A model generated the notes under the pieces. The model did not search any database. It saw only the letters and a list, made by a program, of their open reading frames with translations, and was not told where the DNA came from. A stretch of DNA of 32,760 nt, taken from Thraustochytrium aureum. Taxonomy: Eukaryota. Positions 7,186 through 30,595 of this stretch are shown in pieces. The stretch is from the NCBI GenBank assembly GCA_012862495.1, contig BLSG01000139.1, positions 18,272 to 51,031 on the forward strand, written 5' to 3'. The position numbers and the translations under genes are program-made. The first letter of the stretch is position 1; each line of letters starts with the position of its first letter.

Positions 7186-9199
7186 CTATAGATCAACACC
7201 CTTGCTCTCTGGAGTCGCCTTGCGGGCCGCAGCGCCTGCGTTCCATCGCCGCCGCACGTTGGACGACAAGGACTTTAGCGATTCGCGCGCCGCCGCCGCA
7301 GAGGACAAACTGAGACCTGCGAAAGGGTCACCCCGAGAACCCGACGATGCACCCTCACTCTTTGGAACGTGGCCTCCGACAACTTGAGATACAGGTTCTG
7401 GGCTTGCAGCGATCACTTCGGCAGCCACAGTCCGCGCGGCGGAGGCCGAGAAAGGGCTGGAGCGTTCCGAGAGAAGCTCGACCCTCTGGTGAGCGGCGAT
7501 TTGTCGGTGACCAAGCTCGTCCATTGTTGGCACGCGCGCCCAAGCAAACCCTAGTTGCTGCAAATACTCGTGCAAAAACGCAGCGAAACGCGAACTGTAC
7601 GCGGCGGCGGGAAGTGCACGTGGTGCAACTTCGCCCCCTTGGTCTCCCGAGACTGGCGCTCCTGAAATTGGAAGGAACGCCAAGGCTCTGGGCGGCAAAG
7701 TTGCAACAAGTAGCGCTGCAAAGAAGGCCAAACGCGTGAATGTTGGCGCCAAGTGAAGGGCGACGAGCACCAAGGTGCACGATACGACCAGGAGGTCAAG
7801 AGCGACGCTCAACGTTGCGGACGCGTTCGGATCAGCATAGACGATGGCGTTGACGCTCCGCTCGCACTGGTCTGCCACCCACCCGCTGGCAGCTTCGACC
7901 CAGAGCACCTCGCGTGACGCACTGGCGGACTTTTCAAAAAGGTTGAGCCCGCGCTTCGGATCGCGTATGTGCTCATTCCAGATCACAAAGTCGCGCAGAG
8001 CCATGGTGGCTGCATCCCGGTGCACAGGTACCCCGTCGCGCTCGTAGATCGCGTTTAGGTTTGGGCTTGCCAGGCCGGCGTCCGGCATGCCGACATCTTC
8101 GACAGCCTCGGCACATGTCGAGCTTGTTTCCGTGGTGCGCCGCGGCTTGGCCCCCAACAGCAGACTGCGGTCCACATCCTTGGTCTTGAGTTTGGTGAGC
8201 AAGTTGCCGACCCGCTCCTTTGCAGCGACTAGGCCTGTCCGCCTGTTCTGTACTGTCGCAGGCGGCTCTTGCATGGCGCTTTCGGATGCGGGCCCAGCAT
8301 TCGCAGGAACCTGTGCACGGCGCCCCCTCTCCTTGAGAACACGGCGGGACGAGCGGCGCCTGCGTGCTGTGCCCGAGAGTGGAACAGTTTCCCAGTTCAT
8401 CTGCAGCCTCGCGTTGCGCACGGACGTGCGGGAAACGACCACAGCCGCAGCGTACAAAAGTGCTGGGATCTGCCAAAGCGGCGCGAGAACAACGACGTAA
8501 GCGGCGAACGCGTAAAAGGCGGCAGAGACTAGAGGGCGGCTCCACTGGCCGATCTCGGCGAGGGCTTGACGAGGGCCTCGAGCGAAAAGTTGACTGGCAA
8601 AGTTTCGAACCACAGAGACCCGCAGCAAGTTGCGTCGCAGTCCCTTGAACGCCTCCAAGGTGCCTTTAATTGTGGACCGGTTCGCGCTCGAGTTTGCGGC
8701 GGCTGCAGCGGCGGCGACCGGGTCTGGGGCCAACAGGTATCGCTTCCACAAAGCAGAAGGGCCGACTCCGGGCGCGAGCTCGAGCGAGCACTCGAGGCGG
8801 ATATACCCGAGCGGGTTGGCGGGGAACTCCATTCCAGACTTTGCCACTGTGGGCCCAGCCGGCCTATACTTGTCTGCTTTGCCAACCGGAAAAAGCTCGA
8901 ACCATCGGTCAAAGGCGGGTTCGGCAAAGATGGCGTCCAGAGGGACAATTACTTGGCCGAATGGCTTTGGGTTCCCAATCATTGAGCTCTTGAAGACAAC
9001 AAGGCGCAGGTCCCCGCAAACGTCGTGCACTGCAAAGTCGAGTCGCGTGTTCCAGTCCCACACATCGGGCGTGTTGGGCGTCCTCTTTGACGTGATGGAC
9101 CGTGCAAAGGAGGGCTTCTTGCGCCCCTCCTCGTTCTCCAACATGGGGCTTGTTGTTTGGCTTCCCAGGCCCACGTCGGGTGCAGCATGCCCTTCTTGC

Positions 9200-9230
<31 letters not shown>

Positions 9231-10134
9231 CGGAATTTGGTTCCTGGGGGAATCGAACTGTGGTCCCGCCAAACGAGACGCTGTAGCCAGCTGCTTTGAG
9301 AGCAGACGAGCTCAGTCGCTTTGTTTTCGAGTCCGCGTCGCTTTGCAAGCCTGCAGCATCCGCGACGCGTACAAACAGGTGCCCGAGGGCGGGTGGCCGC
9401 CCGCGCAAAATGCCGTCGGCGCCGAGAGCTTGCTGCACAGGTGAGAAGTCGATCGGAAACTCTTCAACGTCATCGTCATCGTCGTCGTCGGTGAGGGTCT
9501 CGTCCTCGAACGAGCTGCCGTCCTCGTCACTGGAGTGCTCGGTAGTGGCGGAGAACTCGCCGACTTGAACGTTGTGCTCGTCTGACGGAGGTTCTGAAGC
9601 CCCTCTCTCAACTTCTTCGAGCTCACTCTCTGCGGCGCTCACCGCGACCACACCGAGCGCGCTGTGGTCTCGCGGCTCTTCGATTTTGCCGTGGGAGGAT
9701 GCGGCGTGACCTTCCGTGTTGGTGGAACGTTTGCTCTCGTTTGGCGCTTGGTCAGAGATCGCTTCCGGCTGTCGAAGCGATGTCGTTCGCGGTGGCGGTG
9801 GTGGCGGCGGCGACGTCGCGGCGCGCACCGACTGTGGCAACAACGCTGTGCGCGACGGTTGCTGGTTCTCGGCCGGCGCGGGGAGGTTGTGGCTCGGGGG
9901 GCTCAGGGCAGCGCGCGCTCTCGCTAGAAGCGGCCTTTCGTCGCGGCGTGTCTCGTGCGCTATGCATGGGACTTCGAGTTGCGCCTTTGCTTTGCAGCTG
10001 GCGTGCACGACTGCGCCGCAGGTGGCGCATTTGACGCCCTGGTGCCTCAGGCCGATGAGCAGCTTGGAGCACGCCAGGCACTTTGTCGGCTTGAACACCG
10101 TTTCGGCGTGAAAGTCATGCGGGCGGTCTGCCAT
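7186..10134 (-). CDS. C1 + C2 domain membrane protein with MCTP/PRT_C-like transmembrane C-terminus
   Basis: C1 zinc finger HDFHAETVFKPTKCLACSKLLIGLRHQGVKCATCGAVVHASCKAKAQLEVPC; C2-like segment WDWNTRLDFAVHDVCGDLRLVVF...FGQVIVPL...RWFEL; two hydrophobic hairpins; ER..NA....DP and RVP motifs like MCTP C-termini. Confidence 0.8.
9201..9226. repeat. (CTG)n microsatellite encoding poly-Ala in the C1-C2 protein
   Basis: ctgctgctgctgctgctgctgctgct. Confidence 0.85.
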
Positions 10135-12100: not shown

Positions 12101-12171
12101 TCTCCCATGGTGTAGTGGTAACACAATTGACTTTGAATCAATAGCTCTGGGTTCGATTCCCGGTGGGAGAA
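12101..12171 (+). tRNA. tRNA-Gln, anticodon UUG
   Basis: Acceptor stem TCTCCCA/TGGGAGA; D arm GTGTAGTGGTAACAC; anticodon arm ATTGA-CTTTGAA-TCAAT; T arm CTGGG-TTCGATT-CCCGG; no encoded CCA. Confidence 0.95.
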
Positions 12172-12172
12172 C

Positions 12173-12575: not shown

Positions 12576-12676
12576 TGGCAAAGCCCGGCAACAATGCGTG
12601 GCAAAGACCCGGCAACAATGCGTGGCAAAGACCCGGCAACAATGCGTGGCAAAGACCCGGCAACAATACCTGGCAA
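12576..12676. repeat. 24-bp tandem repeat, about 4 copies (TGGCAAAGACCCGGCAACAATGCG)
   Basis: Copies start at 12576 (1-nt deletion), 12599, 12623 and 12647 (degenerate end). Lies downstream of LPMO-like gene A. Confidence 0.9.
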
Positions 12677-12739: not shown

Positions 12740-13835
12740 CTACACTTGGTATCGCGGGTTGGCGGCTGCCATTGGTTGCTGCGAATGGATCCTGTCCAAC
12801 TGACGACGCTTTTTGTAGATCGTGAAGCCCATCCCCACGGCAAGCACCGAACCCACGACACCGACGCCAACGCCAGCGCTCTGCGCTGTTGAAAGGCCTG
12901 CCGTTTCGTTACCGTTATCGATCGATCCAGCAGCGCTTTGCATGCTCCCAGGCACGCACTGGCTGTAGTATGAATTGTACGTCTTGCACGATGTACCCTG
13001 AGGGCAGCAGGCAACACCCGTGAAGGAATTCCCACCGCATTGGCTCCAAACTGCGTTGGGGCAGTTGACCGTCGGCGCGGGGGTCGGCGGAGCAACTGTG
13101 GGCGCCGTCGGGGCATTTGTTGGAGAACCTGCGAAGGCATGGATCAGGTTAGCTGCGACCCAGTGCTATTTCAACGATAGGTGCAAAAGCGCAGCCATCA
13201 CAACGGCACTCGCCGAACGCTTACCATTTCCAGTGCCGCCCCCGGTGCCGCCATCGGCGCCGCCCCCCGTGCCAATGCAGCCTGGGCTGCCTGCAGTGCA
13301 GGGCTCTAGGGTGGCCTCCGCTGGGCCGACGAGGTACTGCTCGCTGGGGCTCTGGCCAGAATACACCTTGCGGTATGCATCAGCGCTCGCCGGGAGGTGC
13401 TCGATTCCAGCGATCGCCACCATCGGTGTCGGCTTGGCCGGGCCCGCGCTTGAAACGATCTTGACATCCGTGCACTGCACATAAAACTCGACGTTGGTGA
13501 CTTGCTGGTGCGCAGTCCATTCCCAGCGCAAAACGCAGTGCTCGCAAGCTGGGAGAGCTGCCGGAATCGGCGCTTGAAGCGTGTATTGATTGGGCATCGC
13601 AATCGCGTTGACTGCGCCGCACCCAGGGAAAGAGGCGATTTTGAAGAAGTCCGTGGGGTTGCACGGCTCGTTTGCAGGTTTGCCCTCGCAAGAATAGCTC
13701 ACGTACAGGTAGCAGTCACCGGGGTGCGGGGCTTCCATCGTGACGCCGAGCTCGAGGTTCGTGCCAGCCGTAACAGTTGTCAGGGCGGAGGGGGTGTCAA
13801 AGTCATGGCACCGCATTGATGTAGGGCTGTACCCG
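12740..13835 (-). CDS. LPMO-like protein A with CBM1, TM helix and NPRYQV tail; 5' end in gap; exons >13835-13225 and 13128-12740
   Basis: The catalytic-type domain is nearly collinear with paralogue B (RCHDF, HPGDCYLY, CEHCVLRWEWTAHQQ, EFYVQCTDV). After a phase-1 intron the frame reads a P/T linker, CBM1 CPNAVWSQCGGNSFTGVACCPQGTSCKTYNSYYSQCVP, TM AGVGVGVVGSVLAVGMGFTIY, KKRR, ...ANPRYQV*. Confidence 0.85.
13129..13224 (-). other. Spliceosomal intron (96 nt, phase 1) in LPMO-like gene A
   Basis: Donor G|GTAAGC, branch-like GCTAAC and acceptor TTCGCAG|G. Splicing puts CBM1 in frame. Confidence 0.88.
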
Positions 13836-14547
13836 NNNNNNNNNNNNNNNNNNNNNNNNNNNNNNNNNNNNNNNNNNNNNNNNNNNNNNNNNNNNNNNNN
13901 NNNNNNNNNNNNNNNNNNNNNNNNNNNNNNNNNNNNNNNNNNNNNNNNNNNNNNNNNNNNNNNNNNNNNNNNNNNNNNNNNNNNNNNNNNNNNNNNNNNN
14001 NNNNNNNNNNNNNNNNNNNNNNNNNNNNNNNNNNNNNNNNNNNNNNNNNNNNNNNNNNNNNNNNNNNNNNNNNNNNNNNNNNNNNNNNNNNNNNNNNNNN
14101 NNNNNNNNNNNNNNNNNNNNNNNNNNNNNNNNNNNNNNNNNNNNNNNNNNNNNNNNNNNNNNNNNNNNNNNNNNNNNNNNNNNNNNNNNNNNNNNNNNNN
14201 NNNNNNNNNNNNNNNNNNNNNNNNNNNNNNNNNNNNNNNNNNNNNNNNNNNNNNNNNNNNNNNNNNNNNNNNNNNNNNNNNNNNNNNNNNNNNNNNNNNN
14301 NNNNNNNNNNNNNNNNNNNNNNNNNNNNNNNNNNNNNNNNNNNNNNNNNNNNNNNNNNNNNNNNNNNNNNNNNNNNNNNNNNNNNNNNNNNNNNNNNNGT
14401 CTGTCTAATCACAATTTACAAGCGGTGCCTGGCGCAGTCGCGCACGCCAAACATGACCAAGGCATGGTCGATACTGGTTGTAAATGCGGTCGCGCGTCTG
14501 CGGCGCGCGACGCACTGGGAAAGGCGATCTTCAAATGGCTCGAGGGG

Positions 14548-16113
14548 CTAGTCGAGCACTGCCACTGTTTGGCGTCGCGCGAGCCAGGCCGTGCCAAGGT
14601 CATCGTGGCTCGGAAGGCGGTCGAAAAGGGCCAGTGCAGCAGCGCGGAGATGATCGAGTCGACGCGAGCCCGACGGTAACGGGACGACGAGCAAAAATAC
14701 GAGCGCAGGCCCATAGAACGAGAGACCGAGCAGGGTGCAAAAATGCAGCGCTGCGGCCCACACGACGCAGACCAGAAAAAGCAGCATGAGCATAACTGAG
14801 GTGGCCAGAGGGTCTGAAAAGTTCCACGCATTCACAGCCTTCTCAAGCAGCGTCGCGCCAATGTCGGCGGCCTGAGCCGCCTGATCAAACTTTCGCGCAA
14901 CTCTGGCAAGGCGCACCACTGTCGAGAGGCCCTGGTCGGGGTCTTGGTCGATATCTTGGTTGAAGATGACCCAGTTGTAGTTCTCGTGGTGCACCTTTTT
15001 GCTGAGAATGCACATGGCGGTGAGAAGGGCATACAGGAGGAGCGGCGCGGCCCATTGAGGCAGCCACCGAGCCGCCGCGAGAGCAAGGGCGCAGACGCCC
15101 CCCGACAGCAGCGGCTGGTCCCAGCTGCGCAAGTGAAAAAGCAAAACAACTGGGAGACTAGAGAGCATCTCGAGTAGCGACGTTTCGATGCGCGCCGCGT
15201 TGCGCTTGATGTCGTTCACGCTGGCCAAAAGCTCTTGCGGCAAGCTGAGAGCGCGAACGCGGTCGTCTGCGCCAGCGTCGCGGCGTCGGCTGCGGTGCGC
15301 CGGGATGTATCTGCGGTTGGCCAAATAGAGCGGCCATAGAATGCGCTTGGGGCCAAAGATGTCGAGCTCGTGGCGCACTGTCAAGTGGAGGGAGCCGTCG
15401 TAGGCTTCCTTGTCGAGGCCTGTGCCAAGCGCCTTGCGATGGCCCGGAACGCCAAGCTTGTAGGTTGCGCTACTCGCGGGCGTGGGCGGCGGCAGCAAAG
15501 CATAGACGGCGGTGCGGCTCTGGCGGGCGCCTCGGTCCAGCAACGCAAAGAAAGGGACGACCAAAGTCCCGATGCACTTGTCCTTGGCGGACAGCGCGCT
15601 GCTGCTAAAGACGCGGATCGAGAAAGAGCCTGCAATGTCGGTGACTGGGAGCCGTGCCTCGAGCTCCCACACGAAAATGGTCCCGGCTGTTTGAAACGCA
15701 ATCGGTGATTGGATGGTCTCGCCTTCCACGCTCAGCTCAAACCACGCTTTGCTTGCGTCCTCGCAAACCAGGGATTTGACCCGGACTTTGAGGAAGCCGA
15801 TGCGCTCTCTCTTCGCTAGACCCAGCTGCTCGTCGCTCTCTTCGCAGAGGCCGAGGGGTGCCAGCTTGCCGCCAAGGAGCCAGTTACCCTCGGCTTGCGC
15901 CGAGTCGCGCTCGTCCGCGTTGGCGCCCGCAGCAGAGGCATCGTCCGCGCCGAGCTCGCCGAGGTCGACCACGAGCTTCCTGAACGCGGTCGACTCGAGT
16001 ACCGTGTTTTCCACGTTGCGCAGCTCGCGTTTGATCTTGGACCTCCATTTGTCTTTGGTCTCGGCCCAGTCCAGCTCGAGCGACTGGAGCCAGCGCTCGC
16101 CCGGGTTGTCCAT
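14548..16113 (-). CDS. C2 domain membrane protein with MCTP/PRT_C-like C-terminus; divergent paralogue of 7186..10134
   Basis: C2-like IGFLKVRVKSL...FVWELEARLPVTDIAGSFSIRVF...CIGTLVVP; TM hairpins; EKAVNAWNFSDPLAT and DRLPSHDDLG motifs. Start assigned to the ATG at 16113; an upstream in-frame ATG lies at 16359. Confidence 0.78.
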   Translation of the reverse strand: MDNPGERWLQSLELDWAETKDKWRSKIKRELRNVENTVLESTAFRKLVVDLGELGADDASAAGANADERDSAQAEGNWLLGGKLAPLGLCEESDEQLGLAKRERIGFLKVRVKSLVCEDASKAWFELSVEGETIQSPIAFQTAGTIFVWELEARLPVTDIAGSFSIRVFSSSALSAKDKCIGTLVVPFFALLDRGARQSRTAVYALLPPPTPASSATYKLGVPGHRKALGTGLDKEAYDGSLHLTVRHELDIFGPKRILWPLYLANRRYIPAHRSRRRDAGADDRVRALSLPQELLASVNDIKRNAARIETSLLEMLSSLPVVLLFHLRSWDQPLLSGGVCALALAAARWLPQWAAPLLLYALLTAMCILSKKVHHENYNWVIFNQDIDQDPDQGLSTVVRLARVARKFDQAAQAADIGATLLEKAVNAWNFSDPLATSVMLMLLFLVCVVWAAALHFCTLLGLSFYGPALVFLLVVPLPSGSRRLDHLRAAALALFDRLPSHDDLGTAWLARRQTVAVLD

Positions 16114-16408
16114 GTCGGCGGCGGAGGAGGAGGCCCGTTGAGGTCGACTTGGCCTGGCGCTGTGGGCCGATAACTCGTAGCGCGGGGAGGGCTTGCTGGC
16201 TTCAGCTGGGACGATCGCCGCGCCGGCTGTGCGCGCTCTCGTGTGCGGCCTGGCCTGTTCCGTTCGCGGCACTGCACGGGCTGTGACGCAGTGAACAAGT
16301 GAACACCACAACAGTGACAACACCAGCGAAATAGAACAAGGAGCGCCACGAACGAACATGAGCACTGCTGACGACGTGGCTGACGAGCTCGCTAGCTGTC
16401 GGGCTTGC

Positions 16409-16468
16409 GCGGGCTCGCTTGGCTGGCGGGCTCGCTTGGCTGGCGGGCTCGCTTGGCTGGCGGGCTCG
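16409..16468. repeat. 17-bp tandem repeat x3.5 (GCGGGCTCGCTTGGCTG)
   Basis: Copies start at 16409, 16426, 16443 and 16460 (partial). Confidence 0.88.
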
Positions 16469-16691
16469 GCGACATCAGCGACTTGAGTCACTGGAGCTCG
16501 ATGCGACCTCGCGCAAGCTGCGCCAGGCGCGGCGCGGGAACGCAGCGAGAGTTGCTCTGAACGAGATAGAGATAGAGCTGGTCAGGCCACGGTTCTATCT
16601 CGTTCATCCAAGGGTGGTGCAGCGTCCTGACAGCCGTGAAACTCTGCATGAGGAATCGTGGAGGTTTGCAAATACTAGCGTTTTGTTGTGT

Positions 16692-17998
16692 CTACACTTG
16701 GTAGCGCGGGTTGGCGTTGGCGACCATGCCTTGGGGCGGCATGGACTTCAGCTGGTCTTGCTGGCGCTTCTTCTTGTACAAGGTGAAGCCCATCCCGGCA
16801 GCAAAAAGTGACCCGACGATGCCGACGCCGAGTCCAGCGCTCTGCGCGGTGGTCAATCCAGCGGTGTTGCCCGCGGAGTCGACCGAGCCGGCCTCAAGCT
16901 GGCCAGCGCCAGGAATGCACTGCGAGTACCATTCGCTCTGAAAGTTGCAAATCGTCCCGGCGGGGCAGCACTCTGCGCCTGTGAACGTCTTGCCACCGCA
17001 CTTGGCCCAGACACGGTTCGGGCAGTTGACAGACGGCGGGGGGGTCGGGACTGGTGTAGGAGCTGGCTGGCCTGTGTTTGGGAAACGAGTCCAGGCGGTT
17101 ATCGGAACGCAAGCAGCGCAGTCGTCAGTATTGGAACAAATCCGGCATGCACTACGGCGGGCTGCAAATTCCGCTTACCTCCTCCAGTGCCGCCGTCACC
17201 AGTGCCGCCGCCAGTGCCGCCGCCAGTGCCGCCGTCGGTGCCACCAGCTCCGGTCCCGCCGGCCCCGACGCAGCCCGGGCTGCCTGCGGTGCAGGCCGTG
17301 AACGTGGCCTGAGCAGGGCCGACAAGGTACTGCGGCCCGGGGCCCTCGCCGTTGTACACCTTGCGGTACGCCGCCGCGGTGTTCGGAAGGTGCTGAATGC
17401 CGGCGATGGCAACCATGGGGCTCGGCTTTGCAGGCGGCGCGTTGGAAACAATCTTGACGTCTGCGCACTGCACGTAAAACTCGATGTCGACGACCTGCTG
17501 GTGCGCCGTCCACTCCCAGCGCGGCACGCAGTGCTCACAAGCGGGCAGAGCTGCCGGGATGACCGTGTTCAGAGTGAAGGCGCCCGGGGGCGCGATCGAG
17601 TTGACGGCGCCGCAGCCCGGGAACGACGCGATCTTGAAAAAGTCTGTTGGCTCGCACGGCTCGGTCGCGGGTTTGCCCTCGCACGAGTAGCTCATGTACA
17701 GGTAGCAATCGCCAGGGTGTGCGGCCTCGAGCGAGATGTCCAGGCCGAGGTTCTGCCCGGCTGTGATGGTGGTCAGCGCAGAGGGCTGCTTAAAGTCGTG
17801 GCACCGCATCGAGGTGGGGCTGTACCCGCCGCGGTTGCCGGCGAGGACGTAGACGGGCGCGCGCTGCTCGTGGCTCACCGCCCTGCCGATCGAGTCGCCG
17901 CGGGGCGTGGGCTTGATGAGCTGCCCGTGCCCGCTGGCCGGGTCGGCAAGAGCCGCGAGGGCGGCGAACGCGGCGGCAGTTGCGGCGAGAACCTTCAT
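16692..17998 (-). CDS. LPMO-like (His-brace) protein B, 399 aa: signal peptide, LPMO-like domain, G/P/T linker, CBM1, TM helix, NPRYQV; exons 17998-17179 and 17071-16692
   Basis: Signal peptide MKVLAATAAAFAALAALADPASG is followed directly by His (HGQLIKPTPR). Second His in AAHPGDC; EFYVQCADV. Exons of 820+380 = 1200 nt are in frame. CBM1 CPNRVWAKCGGKTFTGAECCPAGTICNFQSEWYSQCIP; TM AGLGVGIVGSLFAAGMGFTLY; KKKR...ANANPRYQV*. Confidence 0.9.
17072..17178 (-). other. Spliceosomal intron (107 nt, phase 1) in LPMO-like gene B
   Basis: Donor G|GTAAGC, branch-like TACTGAC and acceptor ACACAG|G. Same position and phase as in gene A. Confidence 0.88.
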
Positions 17999-20129
17999 GG
18001 TGATGTCGCTGTTGGGTTTTCCTTTTGGTGAAGCCTGCGGAGGTTTGGGGTTTGGCTCGCCGAGCAAAGTCCCAACCACTCAGGCTGCTCTACTCACCTT
18101 AGCTACCTTAGACTGCGAGGACGCACTCCATTCAGACTATACCTTGATAAGAGAGTACCCACTCTAGTAGTATGTGGCATCAATGTGGCATGCTGCGTTT
18201 GGCGCCATCATCCAAACCTTGCGATGATGCCGCAGTTTCGCGCAGCCTGCACTGTGCAGACACAAAAAGCAGGCATTTCATTCATCAATTTCCATGGGCT
18301 ATCCAGCCAGTGTCGCCACAAACTTGTCATGCGCAACCGCCCCATTCACGCGACTACACTCTGTAGGTACCGTTTGCTCTGCGAGCCACTCTGCGAGCCG
18401 CTTTGTTCGCGCGTGTTGAATTCCTGTCCTTGCTTGGGGCAATTGGGGGGCGCCGCAAATCGGGCAAGCGTCCATTTTCCGCGCAAAGGAAGGGCCAAAT
18501 CGTGCAAGGAGCGATGGAGCCGAGCAAGCGAGCGAGTAGTGAAGCGGAGCCGTTGCTGCTGGCAGGCCAAAACTTGGGGGGCCAAAGCCAGGACAGGCTT
18601 CGTCAGCCCAACGCTCACGCAGAGCACGCGCGGGTCACCTCGGCATCTATCCACGGGCACTCCAACGATGCGAAGAGTGCCGGCCCAATCCTGGCTTCAC
18701 AAGAAGCGGGCGCACGGCCAGGCCGCCTCGAGTCGCTCTCGATCCTGGGCGTGCGCAAGTCGGGGGTTGCATTTCTGCCACGGCGCACGGTGGCGTGCGC
18801 CCATTTTTTTGGTGTGAGCAGTCTCCATCCGAGACCTATCGCTGAACAACGATCAACTCGCGAGCAAAAGCAGGCACGCCAGCGGAACGAACAATGACTA
18901 GATCGGCGGGTGTGTCCGATCCGAAGTGCGGAACGCTCCGAGCCGCGGCACGTGCTCTCGCACGAAGGAGGGGCACAAGGAGCTGCGGGCAGGCCACGCA
19001 GCCGCGGTGGATCGAGAAAAGAAACGATGTTGCTCGAATGTACGTAGAGGCAAACTNNNNNNNNNNNNNNNNNNNNNNNNNNNNNNNNNNNNNNNNNNNN
19101 NNNNNNNNNNNNNNNNNNNNNNNNNNNNNNNNNNNNNNNNNNNNNNNNNNNNNNNNNNNNNNNNNNNNNNNNNNNNNNNNNNNNNNNNNNNNNNNNNNNN
19201 NNNNNNNNNNNNNNNNNNNNNNNNNNNNNNNNNNNNNNNNNNNNNNNNNNNNNNNNNNNNNNNNNNNNNNNNNNNNNNNNNNNNNNNNNNNNNNNNNNNN
19301 NNNNNNNNNNNNNNNNNNNNNNNNNNNNNNNNNNNNNNNNNNNNNNNNNNNNNNNNNNNNNNNNNNNNNNNNNNNNNNNNNNNNNNNNNNNNNNNNNNNN
19401 NNNNNNNNNNNNNNNNNNNNNNNNNNNNNNNNNNNNNNNNNNNNNNNNNNNNNNNNNNNNNNNNNNNNNNNNNNNNNNNNNNNNNNNNNNNNNNNNNNNN
19501 NNNNNNNNNNNNNNNNNNNNNNNNNNNNNNNNNNNNNNNNNNNNNNNNNNNNNNNNNNNNNNNNNNNNNNNNNNNNNNNNNNNNNNNNNNNNNNNNNNNN
19601 NNNNNNNNNNNNNNNNNNNNNNNNNNNNNNNNNNNNNNNNNNNNNNNNNNNNNNNNNNNNNNNNNNNNNNNNNNNNNNNNNNNNNNNNNNNNNNNNNNNN
19701 NNNNNNNNNNNNNNNNNNNNNNNNNNNNNNNNNNNNNNNNNNNNNNNNNNNNNNNNNNNNNNNNNNNNNNNNNNNNNNNNNNNNNNNNNNNNNNNNNNNN
19801 NNNNNNNNNNNNNNNNNNNNNNNNNNNNNNNNNNNNNNNNNNNNNNNNNNNNNNNNNNNNNNNNNNNNNNNNNNNNNNNNNNNNNNNNNNNNNNNNNNNN
19901 NNNNNNNNNNNNNNNNNNNNNNNNNNNNNNNNNNNNNNNNNNNNNNNNNNNNNNNNNNNNNNNNNNNNNNNNNNNNNNNNNNNNNNNNNNNNNNNNNNNN
20001 NNNNNNNTGTCCGTCGCCTGTCGGGGAAACCCACGGCTTGCGCGCCAGCGTCCGTGATCCACCGCCACGGTCCGATCCGCGGCGCGCCCTGGAGCAGAAC
20101 AGAGCGGTGACGTGGCGGCGACGGCGGCG

Positions 20130-25412: not shown

Positions 25413-28400
25413 CTAGCTGGAGAGCGACCAGTGCAACACTGTGCGGTCGTTGCCGCCTGCAGAAACAAGCGCCTTGTCCCCAAGAAAGGCCACGTTGGTG
25501 ACGTGCGACGAGTGCCCCAAGCCTTTGCGCACCGCAGACTCGTCGCGCACTGCACAAGGATAGGGGTACAAACAGACCGCGCCGCTGTCGTCCCCCGAAG
25601 CTAGCATGCGGTGCCCACAAGCGACAACCGCGTTGACGTCGGTCCCGTCCGCGTCAGGCGGCCACACCCCCTCGGTCTCCCAGGTCAGCGAGCAGTTGGT
25701 CGTGGCCCACTCCACGTCCCTGAGCGCCGTGGCGCTCGTAAGCTGCTTCTTGGCTGTCACGTCGTAAAACAGAAGCTCGTATGAAGTGTCGTTGGTGCGA
25801 ATCACCTTCGAGTCCGCCGACCAGTCAACGTGCGTCACCGTGCCGCTCGAACTCTTCAGCACTGCCTTCTTCTTCAACGACGCTGTGTCGAGGATGTACA
25901 CGTTGGTGTCGTTCGAGCCCACCGCCAAGAGCGCCCCGTTCGGGCTGAACGCGATGCAGGTTGCCGCCTTGCCCTCGCGAGATTTCGCCGCCCGCGTTTT
26001 GCCAGTCTTGGCTGGGTTTTTGCTCCCTTCACTGGCCGCCTTGGCCCCTGCAGGGGCAGTGACGGCTTTGGTTTCAAGCGTCTCGGCGTCAAGGAGCGCC
26101 ACCACATTGTCCGGACCGGCCACCGCGAGCGTGGCGCCGTCCGGCGAGCAGGCCACGGCTCGTGCTGGACCCATTGCTAGCTTGGCCGAGCGCAACTCCT
26201 TGCGCTCCGTAGAACACCAGAGCTTGACGACCGCGTCGTCGCCGACAGAGGCGAGCTTGCCCTGCGAACCGACCGCGGTAAGACCCCACAGCTCGCCAGC
26301 AAAGTGGCTCCCAGCCACAACAGTCTCGCTGCGGAGGAGGTCCCCGTTCGCCAACGAGGCGAACGAGACCGTCACGGCCCGGATCGGGGCGCCGTGCTTC
26401 ACTGCGCGAGTGCGCTCAAGGGCGGCGCCGGATCCTACAGACCACACGACCAGGTCGCCGCTTTTGCTGCCGGACGTCAGCGTCTTGCTGGCTGCGTCAA
26501 AGCACAAGGCGTCCACAGGGCTGCCGCCGTGGCGTCGGCTCCCACCGCCGTCGTGCAGCGCCGTTCGGCGGCATCCCAGATCAACAGCGCGCCGGACTCT
26601 GCGCCAGTGACCAGAAACTCGCCGCCGATCCCGACCAGCGCGGCAGCGCACGGCAGGGTCTGCGCAGAGCCACCAGCTGCCTTGCCAAAGCGGCCCGGCT
26701 TGCCCTTCTTGTTGGGCTCCGCGGGATCCAAAAACGCCGCGTACCGCACTCCGCCAGTCACGAAGCGCTGCCCAGAGTGGACGGCAAACAGGCACACTTC
26801 CTTGTTGCCCTTTGCGCTGCCCAGCAGCTTGCCCGAGGCGGCCTCGTATATGGCCACCGAGTGGCTGTCGTCTGCGCCAACGGTCATGACCTGCGAGCCG
26901 TCCGTTGAGAAGGCGACTTGGCTGACAGCGCGCTGGTGGGAAAATTTGTCCAGCTTTGCCACCAGCTCACCCGAGGTGGTGTCCCAGACGCAGGCGAAGG
27001 GGCTCTTCCCCACCTGCCCCGTCACCGCTTGCGTCCCTGAGGCGTTGACGTCGATGCAAATCACGTCGTCCGTGTGACCCCTGAAGAACACTTGCTTGTG
27101 CGCGTCGACGTCAAAGACGACGCCGAGCCCCGCCGCCGGGTACAACGCGTGGCCCTTCACGCTCTCTCTGAGAGCGCCCCTTGCGCAATTCCGTCCGAAT
27201 GCCCAGTCAAGCTTTGGCTCGACACCGCCGAGGGGGCTGGGGGCCGGGGGCTTTGAGGGCGGGACGATGGCCCCCTTCCACGGCTTTACAGCCATGAACT
27301 CGTCACCGGCAGTTTCCAAGAAACTGAGCATGTGCTCGGAGCACCGCCGCGCGGGGCGCGGACTGGCGGCCTGTTCGCCGTGAACGCTGCCGAGCAAGCT
27401 GTCCAAAAGGTCCTCCGGGATACGAGAGCGCGTGGGCCGTGGTGCCGTCGGCTTGACGAGCTCGTCCGCGCCGTGCACCGGTCCCTCGTAGCACTTTAGC
27501 ATCTTGCCGTAAAGGAGCAGGACGTGCATCATGCGTGCCTGCTCTTTGCGGACGGCGTCCAGCTCAGAGGCGAGCGTGTCGTTTTCGTGCTGGAGCTCGC
27601 GGACCGCACCGGCTAGCATGCGAGCTACTACCGCCTGACCGGCCGCAGGCTTCGCTCGGCTGCCCAGTGGGCCGCCCGCGCCGGCACCAACCGAGCTGTC
27701 CGGCATCGCCTCGTCGCCTCCTCCCTCTGAGCCCTCCGCTGCGCCGAACAGCTGGTTCTCTGCAACCTCGGCCTCGGCGAGCTTGTCGAGCTCAGCCTTG
27801 TCGAGCAGACCGTCCCCCCCGCTGAAGACAGCAAAGGCATCTCGAGAAGGCTGCAGGCCTAGCTTGGCAAGCGCGACTTGCCATTGATCCCACGTGGCGG
27901 CTTGTGCTTTTGAGGCGAGGGCTGGCCGCAGGACCGCGACGAGATCGGCAACGGTGTGCCTTTGCGTGGCGAGCTGGGCTTTGAGCTCCTCTTTGTGCTG
28001 CTCAAACGCGCGAAAGCTGCTCAGCTGGGTTTTCGTCGCGGGCTTTGGCGCCGGCGCGGCAGAAAAGTCGACGAAAACGTACTTGCCGTTGTCCTCCTCC
28101 TCCTCCGCAATTAGCGAGCCGCCCTCCAGGGCGATGGGCTTGTCAGAGTACAGGTGCAAAAAGTAGGGGCCATCGCGCTTGTCATAGTAGATCGACGGGA
28201 CGCACACGTAGTTGCCCTTGGCCATGGTCGGGATGTCGAGGTCCACCGAGAGGTGCATCTTGTACGGGGCTTGGGCAATGCCCTGCGGGCCGCCCAGCTT
28301 GGAGCTCGAGCCGGGGATGAGGTCGGGCGGGTGCTCTGGCAGCGAGCCGCCCAGTGGATCCGCAGCGATGTGGAACCCGATGGGGTCCTGGAACTTGAAC

Positions 28401-29684
28401 TGGTCCTTGCCGTCAGCGATTCGGGGGTCGTCCTGGCAGAGTGAGATGAAGACGCGCGTGCTATCCTCCAGGACCCGAAAGCGGTGCGCTGGGTTGGTCA
28501 TCCAGGTCTTCATGGTGTTGTTGCCGCCCGAGGTCGACTTGGTCCATTGGCCAGCTAGCTTGAGGCCTGCCCAGTGCTCGGGAAAGTCAAGCGCGGCAAA
28601 GACAACCGTAAAGTAGCGAGCCCAATCTTCCCAGGCCATGAAAAAGGTTCCATCCTTGTCGTTCGCCTCCACCGTTTGCGCGGTGCTGTCGACGCCCTTG
28701 CGCTTGGACACAGGACCGGAAAACTCCTTTTCGAGCTGAGCCTTGTAGGTGCGAAACTCGGCGCTGTCGTCCGACCAGCTGCCCGTCCACTCGCCAAACC
28801 CCCAGGGGTTGCGCAGCCGCAAGAGCCTTACAGGGCCGCTGCTCGTCTGAATCGTCCCGACGTCGATGAGGGAGTACGCGTGGCGCATCATGAGTCCAGT
28901 GTCGCCAATCTTGGTCTCGACCGAGCCCTGACCCGCGCCCTGCGGGTCGGGTTGGATCGAGCAACCCATCATGCAAGCCCACTTGTTCAGGTACTCGTCC
29001 ATCATTCGCCATAGCGAGCCGTCTTCGAGGTCGCGCTTGTTTTTCGGGTGAAATCCGGTGTGGCCCTCGCGGAGCACAAGCTCTTGGCACGCGTACCCTG
29101 TCAAGTCGCGGAGGGCCCCGTCGACGTAGCCCCCGATCAGAGCGTCGTAGCTGCGGTGAAGCTTGGCGTACGCCTTCTCCAGCAGAGGGACCCACAGCTC
29201 GTTCGAGTCCTTGCAGTGCGCGAACACCGGCTTGCCCGACTTTGTGAAGACGGGCAACAGGTCGTCGATGATCACGAAAAACCAGGCGTTGTCCTTGAAA
29301 AACCTGCAGACGCGAAACCCGTACTTGCGCATCTTGCGCTCCATCGACTTGTTGGTGCTACGCCAGAACACGCGCTCGAGCAGGTCGGCGCGCGTCGCGA
29401 GCACGCTCATGCCGCTCAGGAGCCAGCAGTCGCCGACCTTGCCCTGGATCACGTCGTTGGCGTTGACGCCGCCAAGAAAGAGAGCTCCGGCCTCGCAAAA
29501 CCACTTGCGACCAGACTCTCTGCCGTAGCTGTCCTCCGCCAGGGGGTCGCTCGAGGTTGCCGTGTCGGCCTCCTCGTCCGTTTCCTCCTCATCCTCGGAG
29601 GTAAAGCCGCCGTCTTTCGACTCCTCGACAGCGTGGATGCCAAGCTTAAGGTCCTTGGTGTAACGAGGGCGCAGCCAGCTGCAC
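25413..29684 (-). CDS. Calpain (CysPc + domain III) fused to an EML-type HELP/WD40 beta-propeller region; 5' end in gap; apparent -1 frame break near 26531
   Basis: Catalytic triad motifs QGKVGDCWLLS, RHAYSLI and LRNPWG; domain III (GQWTKSTSGG, ISLCQDD, YVCVPS). EML motifs GDEFMAVKPWKGAIVPPS, FFRGHTDDV, TGQVGK, DGTDVNAV, SGDDSGAVCLYPYPC, GHSSHVTNVAF and SAGGNDRTVLHW. Confidence 0.88.
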
Positions 29685-30595
29685 NNNNNNNNNNNNNNNN
29701 NNNNNNNNNNNNNNNNNNNNNNNNNNNNNNNNNNNNNNNNNNNNNNNNNNNNNNNNNNNNNNNNNNNNNNNNNNNNNNNNNNNNNNNNNNNNNNNNNNNN
29801 NNNNNNNNNNNNNNNNNNNNNNNNNNNNNNNNNNNNNNNNNNNNNNNNNNNNNNNNNNNNNNNNNNNNNNNNNNNNNNNNNNNNNNNNNNNNNNNNNNNN
29901 NNNNNNNNNNNNNNNNNNNNNNNNNNNNNNNNNNNNNNNNNNNNNNNNNNNNNNNNNNNNNNNNNNNNNNNNNNNNNNNNNNNNNNNNNNNNNNNNNNNN
30001 NNNNNNNNNNNNNNNNNNNNNNNNNNNNNNNNNNNNNNNNNNNNNNNNNNNNNNNNNNNNNNNNNNNNNNNNNNNNNNNNNNNNNNNNNNNNNNNNNNNN
30101 NNNNNNNNNNNNNNNNNNNNNNNNNNNNNNNNNNNNNNNNNNNNNNNNNNNNNNNNNNNNNNNNNNNNNNNNNNNNNNNNNNNNNNNNNNNNNNNNNNNN
30201 NNNNNNNTGCGACTGCGATGGAGTACTGAATGAGGCAGAGCACTGAGCGCGCGCACGAGTTCGCACTCTACTCCTCCCACTCAACTTCGCGGCACTGCCC
30301 TGACAGAGCAGGAACATTTGGCTGCCAGTGTCATCTGGCCAGAACACACGCGCAGAGCTCCTCCAGACGACGAGGACAGACCCGCTGGACTGGTGCGCAC
30401 AGCGACCAGCCTGTCTGTCATAGGGACCGGCAGACCGACGGCCACCGCGCGGCGCCTGGCGCCAGAAAGCGCAAGGCGCAGGAGAGCTGAGCTCCCAGCT
30501 CGGCACGCGAGCCCGCCTCCCGAGACGCCAACTCGCCACAAGCAGCAAACGCGCAAGGCGACGGGGCGCACGCAGCACGTTGCCGCGGAGGCGGC

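Follow-up and report, generated by a model that had tools for sequence, protein, structure and literature searches.

A possible intron-controlled anchor switch in two paralogous genes for a predicted cell-surface copper LPMO of Thraustochytrium aureum

How is a polysaccharide-oxidizing enzyme held at the surface of a protist cell, and can one intron decide between two ways of holding it? The question is raised by two paralogous genes on the minus strand of Thraustochytrium aureum contig BLSG01000139.1 (assembly GCA_012862495.1, positions 18,272 to 51,031), a stretch of 32,760 nt, hereafter the window, which is gene-dense and eukaryotic in character, with a GC content of ~ 60% and six runs of N. 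Both genes encode a domain that resembles lytic polysaccharide monooxygenases (LPMOs). His-brace LPMOs oxidize crystalline polysaccharide, and the CBM1 module, which follows the LPMO domain once the intron is removed, binds cellulose and chitin. In the spliced reading the protein ends with a predicted transmembrane (TM) helix and a short tail; in the unspliced reading it ends inside the intron with a hydrophobic stretch that resembles the signal for a glycosylphosphatidylinositol (GPI) anchor. With modest confidence, we favor the view that the single intron of both genes works as a switch between two anchors of their predicted product, a copper LPMO at the cell surface.

The gene called copy 2 has the following features, with residues numbered from the mature N-terminus unless stated otherwise:

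17998-16692 (minus): copy 2 gene, a 399-aa open reading frame after removal of intron 17072-17178
17930-17998 (minus): predicted signal peptide of 23 aa that ends before His1 (hydropathy up to 2.25 over 11 aa; relatives have His-Gly after the leader)
17264-17929 (minus): LPMO domain of 222 aa (Pfam AA9; model pLDDT 90.9; VIA Z 16.9 to 8b7p)
17927-17929 (minus): His1, first residue after the predicted leader (aa 24 of the precursor)
17717-17719 (minus): His71, second brace His, paired with AA9 chains by hidden Markov model (HMM) alignment
17501-17503 (minus): second-sphere His143, paired with AA9 chains by HMM alignment
17480-17482 (minus): second-sphere Glu150, paired with AA9 chains by HMM alignment
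17474-17476 (minus): axial Tyr152, paired with AA9 chains by HMM alignment
17179-17263 (minus): Gly/Thr-rich linker at the end of exon 1, from sequence
17072-17178 (minus): GT-AG intron of 107 nt, phase 1, GTAAGC...CAG (skipped by an X2 contig; contained in X1, X2 and X3 contigs)
17099-17178 (minus): intron read-through of 26 aa with a GPI-signal-like hydrophobic end (best 11-mer hydropathy 2.14); stop at 17099-17101
17025-17071 (minus): Pro/Thr linker at the start of exon 2, from sequence
16917-17024 (minus): CBM1 (Pfam CBM_1, E 4.2e-9)
16776-16841 (minus): predicted TM helix, Gly-rich with one GxxxG, then KKKR (hydropathy 1.66)
16692-16775 (minus): predicted cytosolic tail ending in NPRYQV, and stop

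Exon 1 matches Pfam AA9 with 45 bits (E 1.6e-11, cut-off 27.8) and exon 2 matches CBM_1 with 36.6 bits (cut-off 20.6); the value of 1.66 for the TM-like stretch is its best 19-residue hydropathy, and KKKR is followed by a 28-residue tail. Splicing was assessed with contigs from four sequencing runs, which indicate presence only, neither strand nor expression level; X1 is DNA, while X2, X3 and X4 are probable RNA by guess, none being recorded as RNA. Intron 17072-17178 is one of 19 frame-keeping GT-AG choices, and one X2 contig, of depth 93, skips exactly these 107 bases, with 21 letters on the short side of the joint where our criterion for a bridge is 31 letters on each side. Another X2 contig spans the intron at a depth of 21, compared with 3.6-5.5 for the contigs flanking it, and X3 likewise holds an intron-spanning contig. 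The two exons do not represent two separate genes, because exon 2 has neither a start nor a leader ahead of the CBM1. The spliced architecture of copy 2 is predicted signal peptide, LPMO, linker, CBM1, predicted TM helix and tail. At window position 17523 the assembly encodes Pro as mature residue 136, whereas X1 and X2 have Leu, the residue seen in nearly all relatives; an assembly error or a rare allele is the probable cause. Upstream of the start codon, at 18063-18107, 26 bases are missing in an X2 contig, which may be a strain indel or a poorly aligned small intron.

The second gene, copy 1, shows the same domain order as far as it is visible:

13834-12740 (minus): copy 1 gene, visible part
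13280-13834 (minus): LPMO domain without its N-terminus (Pfam AA9, E 6.4e-13, 49.5 bits)
13724-13726 (minus): brace His, by alignment to copy 2
13508-13510 (minus): second-sphere His, by alignment to copy 2
13487-13489 (minus): second-sphere Glu, by alignment to copy 2
13481-13483 (minus): Tyr, by alignment to copy 2
13129-13224 (minus): putative GT-AG intron of 96 nt, phase 1, with a CTAAC branch-like motif; its removal restores the CBM1-TM frame
13166-13224 (minus): intron read-through of 19 aa with a GPI-signal-like hydrophobic end (best 11-mer hydropathy 2.28); stop at 13166-13168
12956-13063 (minus): CBM1 (Pfam CBM_1, E 7.1e-8, 32.7 bits)
12815-12880 (minus): predicted TM helix, then KKRR (hydropathy 1.90)
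12740-12814 (minus): predicted cytosolic tail ending in NPRYQV, and stop, from sequence

The first ~ 57 codons of copy 1 fall within a run of N upstream of 13835, so its signal peptide and His1 are not visible. The two introns lie at the same place and in the same phase and have the same GTAAGCG donor. In the LPMO part 145 of 188 residues are identical between the copies, and in the TM helix 16 of 22. Since only 29 of 67 four-fold sites in the LPMO domain are identical, which is near saturation, the paralogues are old. A first-pass annotation made from the letters of the window had proposed leader, His1, LPMO domain, linker, CBM1, single TM helix and NPRYQV tail, joined by splicing, for both genes. 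For copy 2, Pfam, the fold model and the X2 joint agree with this layout down to the hydrophobic leader and His1, and the Pfam matches to AA9 and CBM_1 recur in both copies. For copy 1 the leader and His1 could not be confirmed, and we infer splicing at 13129-13224 from the reading frame only.

If the message is left unspliced, the intron adds 26 residues before a stop codon in copy 2 and 19 in copy 1. We compared these ends with those of relatives, which were collected in protein searches (15, then 31 proteins) and as 66 loci (61 metagenome and 5 viral, 59 of which could be parsed), the sets overlapping; anchors were classed as GPI-like or TM plus tail by our own hydropathy rule, and omega sites were called by a simple rule. 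Both read-through ends are uncharged and hydrophobic, with best 11-mer values of 2.14 in copy 2 and 2.28 in copy 1, compared with 1.78-2.83 in GPI-like relatives. Gly-rich candidates for an omega site lie 21-33 residues before the ends, and the read-through form, with small omega residues, a polar spacer and a hydrophobic C-terminus without a cytosolic tail, fits both the hydropathy and the simple omega rules. When the intron interior was shuffled 20,000 times, such a hydrophobic end arose with P 0.005-0.013 for copy 2 and P 0.006-0.026 for copy 1, depending on the rule and the kind of shuffle. A generic rule was passed by 15 of 3005 GT sites of the window. Among GT[AG]AG sites in the matching phase, 2 of 51 passed the GPI-like rule and both are the real donors; over all three phases 4 of 153 passed, the two real donors among them. 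Because the property is kept in both paralogues, which are old, selection on it is suggested, and by the sequence the balance tips narrowly towards a functional read-through form, GPI-type and without CBM.

Several observations weigh against an anchor switch. The GPI-like rule considers hydropathy only and was chosen after the ends had been seen. The status of X2 and X3 as RNA is guessed, so that their contigs may hold pre-mRNA or DNA, and neither the spliced nor the intron-retaining contigs reach 31 letters on both sides. Copy 1 has no contig cover in X2-X4, which does not speak for silence of the gene; the DNA run X1 covers 29 of its 30 bins. As proteins, the read-through ends of the two copies show no significant similarity (P 0.42); the introns show a weak one as DNA (P 0.036), their best alignment containing a 2-nt gap; and the GC content at third codon positions (GC3) of the read-through is 0.56-0.61, below the 0.65-0.84 of the exons. 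Because the introns are alike in DNA, the two shuffle tests partly depend on each other, and the signal for coding is weak. A matching intron layout was found in none of the relatives searched, and trees leave the window genes unplaced.

These observations could also be explained by an ordinary intron, in which case the cell would make the spliced TM form alone, the hydrophobic read-through would be due to chance or be the relic of an ancestral GPI-signal exon kept after capture of a downstream CBM1-TM exon, and the retained contigs would be pre-mRNA or DNA. The dissimilar peptides, the 2-nt gap, the low GC3 and the guessed nature of X2 and X3 all fit this explanation, as does the greater depth of the joined contig relative to the intron-containing one. 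However, the intron-containing contig of X2 is itself 4-6 times deeper than its flanking contigs, and both paralogues, whose four-fold sites are near saturation, have kept an uncharged hydrophobic end and a stop at the P-values given above. We therefore hold an ordinary intron to be possible but rather doubtful. Intronic polyadenylation was discarded, as no AATAAA-type signal is present and a contig spans the whole intron.

In the anchor switch that we propose, the spliced message would give LPMO, linker, CBM1, predicted TM helix and short tail, and the unspliced message LPMO, linker and a GPI-type signal without CBM1, both forms presumably being displayed at the cell surface. In the TM form the CBM1, ~ 25 residues from the bilayer, would pin the membrane to crystalline polysaccharide, and the enzyme on its ~ 45-residue linker would oxidize the surface within reach, which amounts to contact digestion. 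The GPI-type form corresponds to the common state of the relatives and would work untethered from the substrate or be shed. In the simplest history, a splice donor would have arisen immediately ahead of the anchor signal of a GPI-anchored ancestor, which would thereby have captured a CBM1-TM exon.

The tail of the TM form raises a question of its own, since the first-pass annotation took it for a conserved NPxY signal for recycling or cytoskeletal coupling and the protein for a receptor-like substrate sensor. NPxY is an endocytosis motif, and a C-terminal Val can act as a PDZ-type or endoplasmic reticulum (ER) export signal. The shared NPRYQV end stood up to comparison of the copies: the terminal 7 of 7 tail residues are identical, compared with 9 of the 18 that precede them, a run with a chance of ~ 0.008-0.03 at 50-60% background identity, which suggests that the terminal residues are under constraint. 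Since 20 of 21 bases of the terminal 7 codons are identical, with 6 of 7 third positions matching (P ~ 0.1), the identity may reflect conservation at the DNA level. NPxY ends were found in 0 of 31 protein relatives, 3 TM proteins included, and in 0 of 59 parsed loci, none of which is a close orthologue (above 64% identity); the motif was therefore not borne out as a defining signal of the group, which goes half the way to the refutation that the annotation itself had named, a lack of NPxY in orthologues. In relative P0070, a type I membrane protein, N-P and a terminal Val recur at the end of the tail with the spacing of the window genes and with Ser in place of Tyr, and a terminal Val is also seen in relative P0083. 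For the window proteins a sorting function of the tail is probable; the data do not decide between NPxY and the terminal Val, although P0070 leans to Val.

An NPxY-driven receptor would be compatible with an anchor switch, and it can point to the terminal identity and to the position of the motif near the C-terminus and ~ 22 residues from the helix, which we liken to integrin beta tails. Conservation across orthologues, as expected of LDLR- or integrin-type receptors, could be judged from the two window paralogues, which keep NPxY, and from more distant relatives, which lack it. With P0070 and P0083 favoring a Val-based signal, 20 of 21 bases identical at the motif and no signalling domain in the protein, the sensing and recycling model is possible but unsupported, and we regard it as unlikely.

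What does the catalytic domain do? The fold model was built from a 39-row alignment and replaced an earlier 14-row model that was poor at His1. The model has a pLDDT of 90.9; LPMOs and LPMO-like proteins occupy all of its 23 top ranks in VIA, and Foldseek gave E 3.5e-9. The best VIA match is an AA9 enzyme (8b7p; Z 16.9, rmsd 3.0, 187 aligned residues, 22% identity); AA9 chains score 15-17, followed by AA11 with 14.1, AA15 with 12.3, AA14 with 12.0 and X325 with 9.8. A sequence-profile search of the PDB ranked AfAA11B first (E 1.9e-7) with AA9 chains next; a single-sequence search of the PDB returned linker matches only. In the profile alignment His71 pairs with the His of the AA9 H-P-G, His143 with the second-sphere His and Tyr152 with the axial Tyr, and Glu150, two residues before Tyr152, aligns with the second-sphere Gln of AA9. 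Among the 39 aligned rows His71 and Glu150 are invariant and Tyr152 is at least 90% conserved. The claim of the first-pass annotation that the genes encode an LPMO-type copper site agrees with these alignments and the modelled fold, His1 being visible in copy 2. Cover of the Pfam AA9 profile is partial (positions 38-187 of 207).

Passages of two studies allow the second sphere to be placed. His-Gln-Tyr is given as the AA9 motif, and an engineered His-Glu-Tyr (HEY) variant of MaAA10B is described with ~ 5-fold higher oxidase activity, better action on beta-chitin and worse action on cellulose (PMC11137697); Tyr plus Glu is described as unique to AA11, with Asn as third residue (PMC12186267). 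The window genes carry His143-Glu150-Tyr152 and thus depart from the AA9 motif; they share Tyr and Glu with AA11 but have His, not Asn, as the third residue, and AA9 outranks AA11 by structure although AfAA11B is the best profile match. Judged from sequence, the predicted enzyme group would work like AA9 and AA11 yet lacks one defining feature of each. In the parsed loci H-E-Y at the window spacing occurs in 15 of 48 and V-E-Y in 25 of 48, the latter mostly in a low-GC group. Because the HEY variant of MaAA10B did better on beta-chitin and Tyr plus Glu is typical of AA11, the His-Glu-Tyr second sphere hints at chitin, or mixed chitin and cellulose, as substrate. By analogy with the published mutants, the predicted enzyme may also produce H2O2 at a high rate. 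A relative of the Glu type (L046) carries two chitin-binding modules, and one of the Gln type (L038) carries GH45.

Compared with AA9 enzymes such as AnLPMOC (8b7p) and HiLPMO9B (5nns), the window proteins share the fold over residues 1-210, His1, the second His in H-P-G, the second-sphere His, the axial Tyr, a Pfam AA9 score above the cut-off and the CBM1 partner that many AA9 enzymes have. They differ in an identity of only 17-22%, Glu for Gln, an extra Cys-pair loop, membrane anchors and their non-fungal origin. With AA11 (AfAA11B, 9exj; AoAA11, 4mai) they share the axial Tyr and Glu, the best PDB profile match and a Z of 14.1, but have His where AA11 has Asn, a structural score below that of AA9 and ~ 20% identity.

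The uncharacterized relatives, named ones from Symbiodinium, Breviolum, Effrenium, Durusdinium, Prorocentrum and Mucochytrium quahogii and others from metagenomes and giant viruses, are 33-67% identical in the matched LPMO part and share an RWEW...EFY core. Of the five viral loci four are labelled as giant-virus metagenome-assembled genomes, and the viral loci appear to repeat metagenome loci; with no hallmark gene among the 7 neighbors scanned, the viral origin of the loci labelled as giant virus is putative. Prokaryote genomes yielded no relatives (0 of 10 pattern matches). By the hydropathy rule 14 of the 31 proteins have GPI-like ends, 3 a TM helix plus tail and 14 partial or other ends; among the 59 parsed loci 29 are GPI-like and 4 have a TM helix plus tail, three of these being one protein. 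Membrane tethering, as predicted from sequence, is common among the relatives of the window genes. A two-Cys loop after the strand that follows His71 occurs in 8 of 68 parsed rows, namely both window copies, P0070 and its three loci, and Mucochytrium P0079 and P0097. Together with an IFT46 gene in the window, this loop hints at a flagellated, labyrinthulomycete-like host. Trees neither support nor reject a clade of the window genes with P0070 and Mucochytrium (p-AU 0.23 and 0.44).

Although a Mucochytrium relative has a CBM1 and Mucochytrium and P0070 share the Cys-pair loop, the combination of LPMO, CBM1, TM helix and NPxY was found in none of the protist, metagenome and viral relatives (31 proteins, 59 parsed loci), nor was the intron layout. 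A search with exon 2 against longer proteins returned only 2 CBM1 proteins, which are unrelated. The distant Gln-type relative L038 (44-2542) combines an LPMO, CBM1-like repeats, GH45, a TM-like helix and a tail, and because it exists the LPMO-CBM1-TM layout is not unique; by sequence it is a second transmembrane LPMO multi-enzyme. An Atlas look-up of relative P0005 led to a cluster without a name at 0.93, AA9 by structure.

Other relatives show further partners. L062-L066, L018-L034 and L051 are ~ 600-aa proteins with EGF-like repeats and GPI-like ends on contigs of ~ 25% GC, four of which carry the giant-virus label, and a chondroitinase-B-like gene lies near L065. Fusions to GH8 were seen in L017 (Pfam) and L023 (by likeness), GH19-like regions in L016 and L050 (by eye), chitin-binding modules in L046 and a LamG-like domain in L002. 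In L019, L024 and L025 (P0078, P0080 and P0081) the LPMO is followed by a ~ 170-aa domain that looks Cu/Zn-SOD-like by eye but has no Pfam match, and then by a GPI-like end; the second-sphere His is replaced in these three. In NCBI the Symbiodinium relatives P0035-P0040 bear the name 'Vps13c', which is likely an error that stems from a fused gene model.

A surface protein that binds copper or generates H2O2 without cutting polysaccharide, like the GPI-anchored LPMO-like X325 proteins, would be the remaining interpretation. Published work describes His-brace proteins without peroxygenase activity (PMC12186267), GPI-anchored X325 members (PMC8615602) and HEY variants as strong oxidases (PMC11137697), and the SOD-like domain of P0078, P0080 and P0081, which lacks Pfam support, would suit such a role. 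Against it, the axial Tyr and second-sphere Glu are kept, the fold is far closer to AA9 and AA11 (Z 14-17) than to X325 (Z 9.8) and the fused partners are CBM1, chitin-binding modules, GH45 and GH8, and we consider it very improbable.

One gene giving differently anchored forms by a splicing choice is familiar from animals, where NCAM, CD58 and acetylcholinesterase have GPI/TM or read-through isoforms. The anchor switch proposed here would differ in that the retained intron itself would encode the GPI-type signal and that a CBM would be added or removed, in a carbohydrate-active enzyme (CAZyme) of a protist. GPI-anchored LPMOs are known in AA9, AA14, AA15, AA16 and X325 from a survey of 27,060 sequences, whose main text does not contain the word 'transmembrane' (PMC8615602). 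Surface tethering by a C-terminal anchor after a low-complexity linker is common to those proteins, as described there (PMC8615602), and to the window genes, which differ in a TM helix with cytosolic tail and in two predicted anchors per gene. A search of full-text literature, which covered few subscription journals and no supplements, gave among the papers listed none on this protist LPMO group, a TM LPMO-CBM1 or an intron-coded LPMO anchor; the proteins may already appear under AA9 in CAZyme tables of protist genomes. The catalytic domain apparently belongs to a protist and giant-virus group not described before, ~ 20% identical to AA9 and AA11. Taken as a whole, a regulated intron-retention switch, preserved in two old paralogues, between a lipid-anchored sheddable LPMO and a TM LPMO-CBM1 adhesin-enzyme with a sorting tail, within a new LPMO family of dinoflagellates, labyrinthulomycetes and giant viruses that has a natural His-Glu-Tyr site intermediate between AA9 and AA11 and acts on chitin in aquatic food webs, is a tentative proposal that falls a little short of being probable.

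Knowledge of LPMOs comes mostly from secreted fungal and bacterial enzymes, and the window genes would represent a surface-tethered branch in protists and giant viruses. They carry naturally a second-sphere combination that had been engineered into a bacterial LPMO for study, and because it occurs naturally a direct test of how the second sphere sets substrate and H2O2 handling becomes possible. If the intron switch is true, the cell would toggle an oxidative enzyme between substrate-clamped TM and CBM-less lipid-anchored forms, and a new C-terminal module could be captured without loss of the old anchor. This would be relevant to the turnover of chitin and cellulose by aquatic protists and to surface display in coral-symbiont dinoflagellates.

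Around the two genes the window has several further features. A 24-nt tandem repeat (12585-12670) lies immediately downstream of copy 1, and a tRNA-Gln(TTG) gene is found at 12101-12172 (plus). Between the LPMO copies, and unrelated to them, a 521-aa membrane-protein gene (14548-16113, minus) has a weak PRT_C match (E 0.07); together with a membrane-protein gene with C1 and C2 domains at 7186-10131 (minus), it resembles multiple-C2 transmembrane proteins. An IFT46 gene is also present, and at 26477-30280 (minus) a calpain protease domain and domain III are followed, beyond a run of N and without a change of frame, by a long WD40/EML-like region, the WD40 repeats being recognized by eye.

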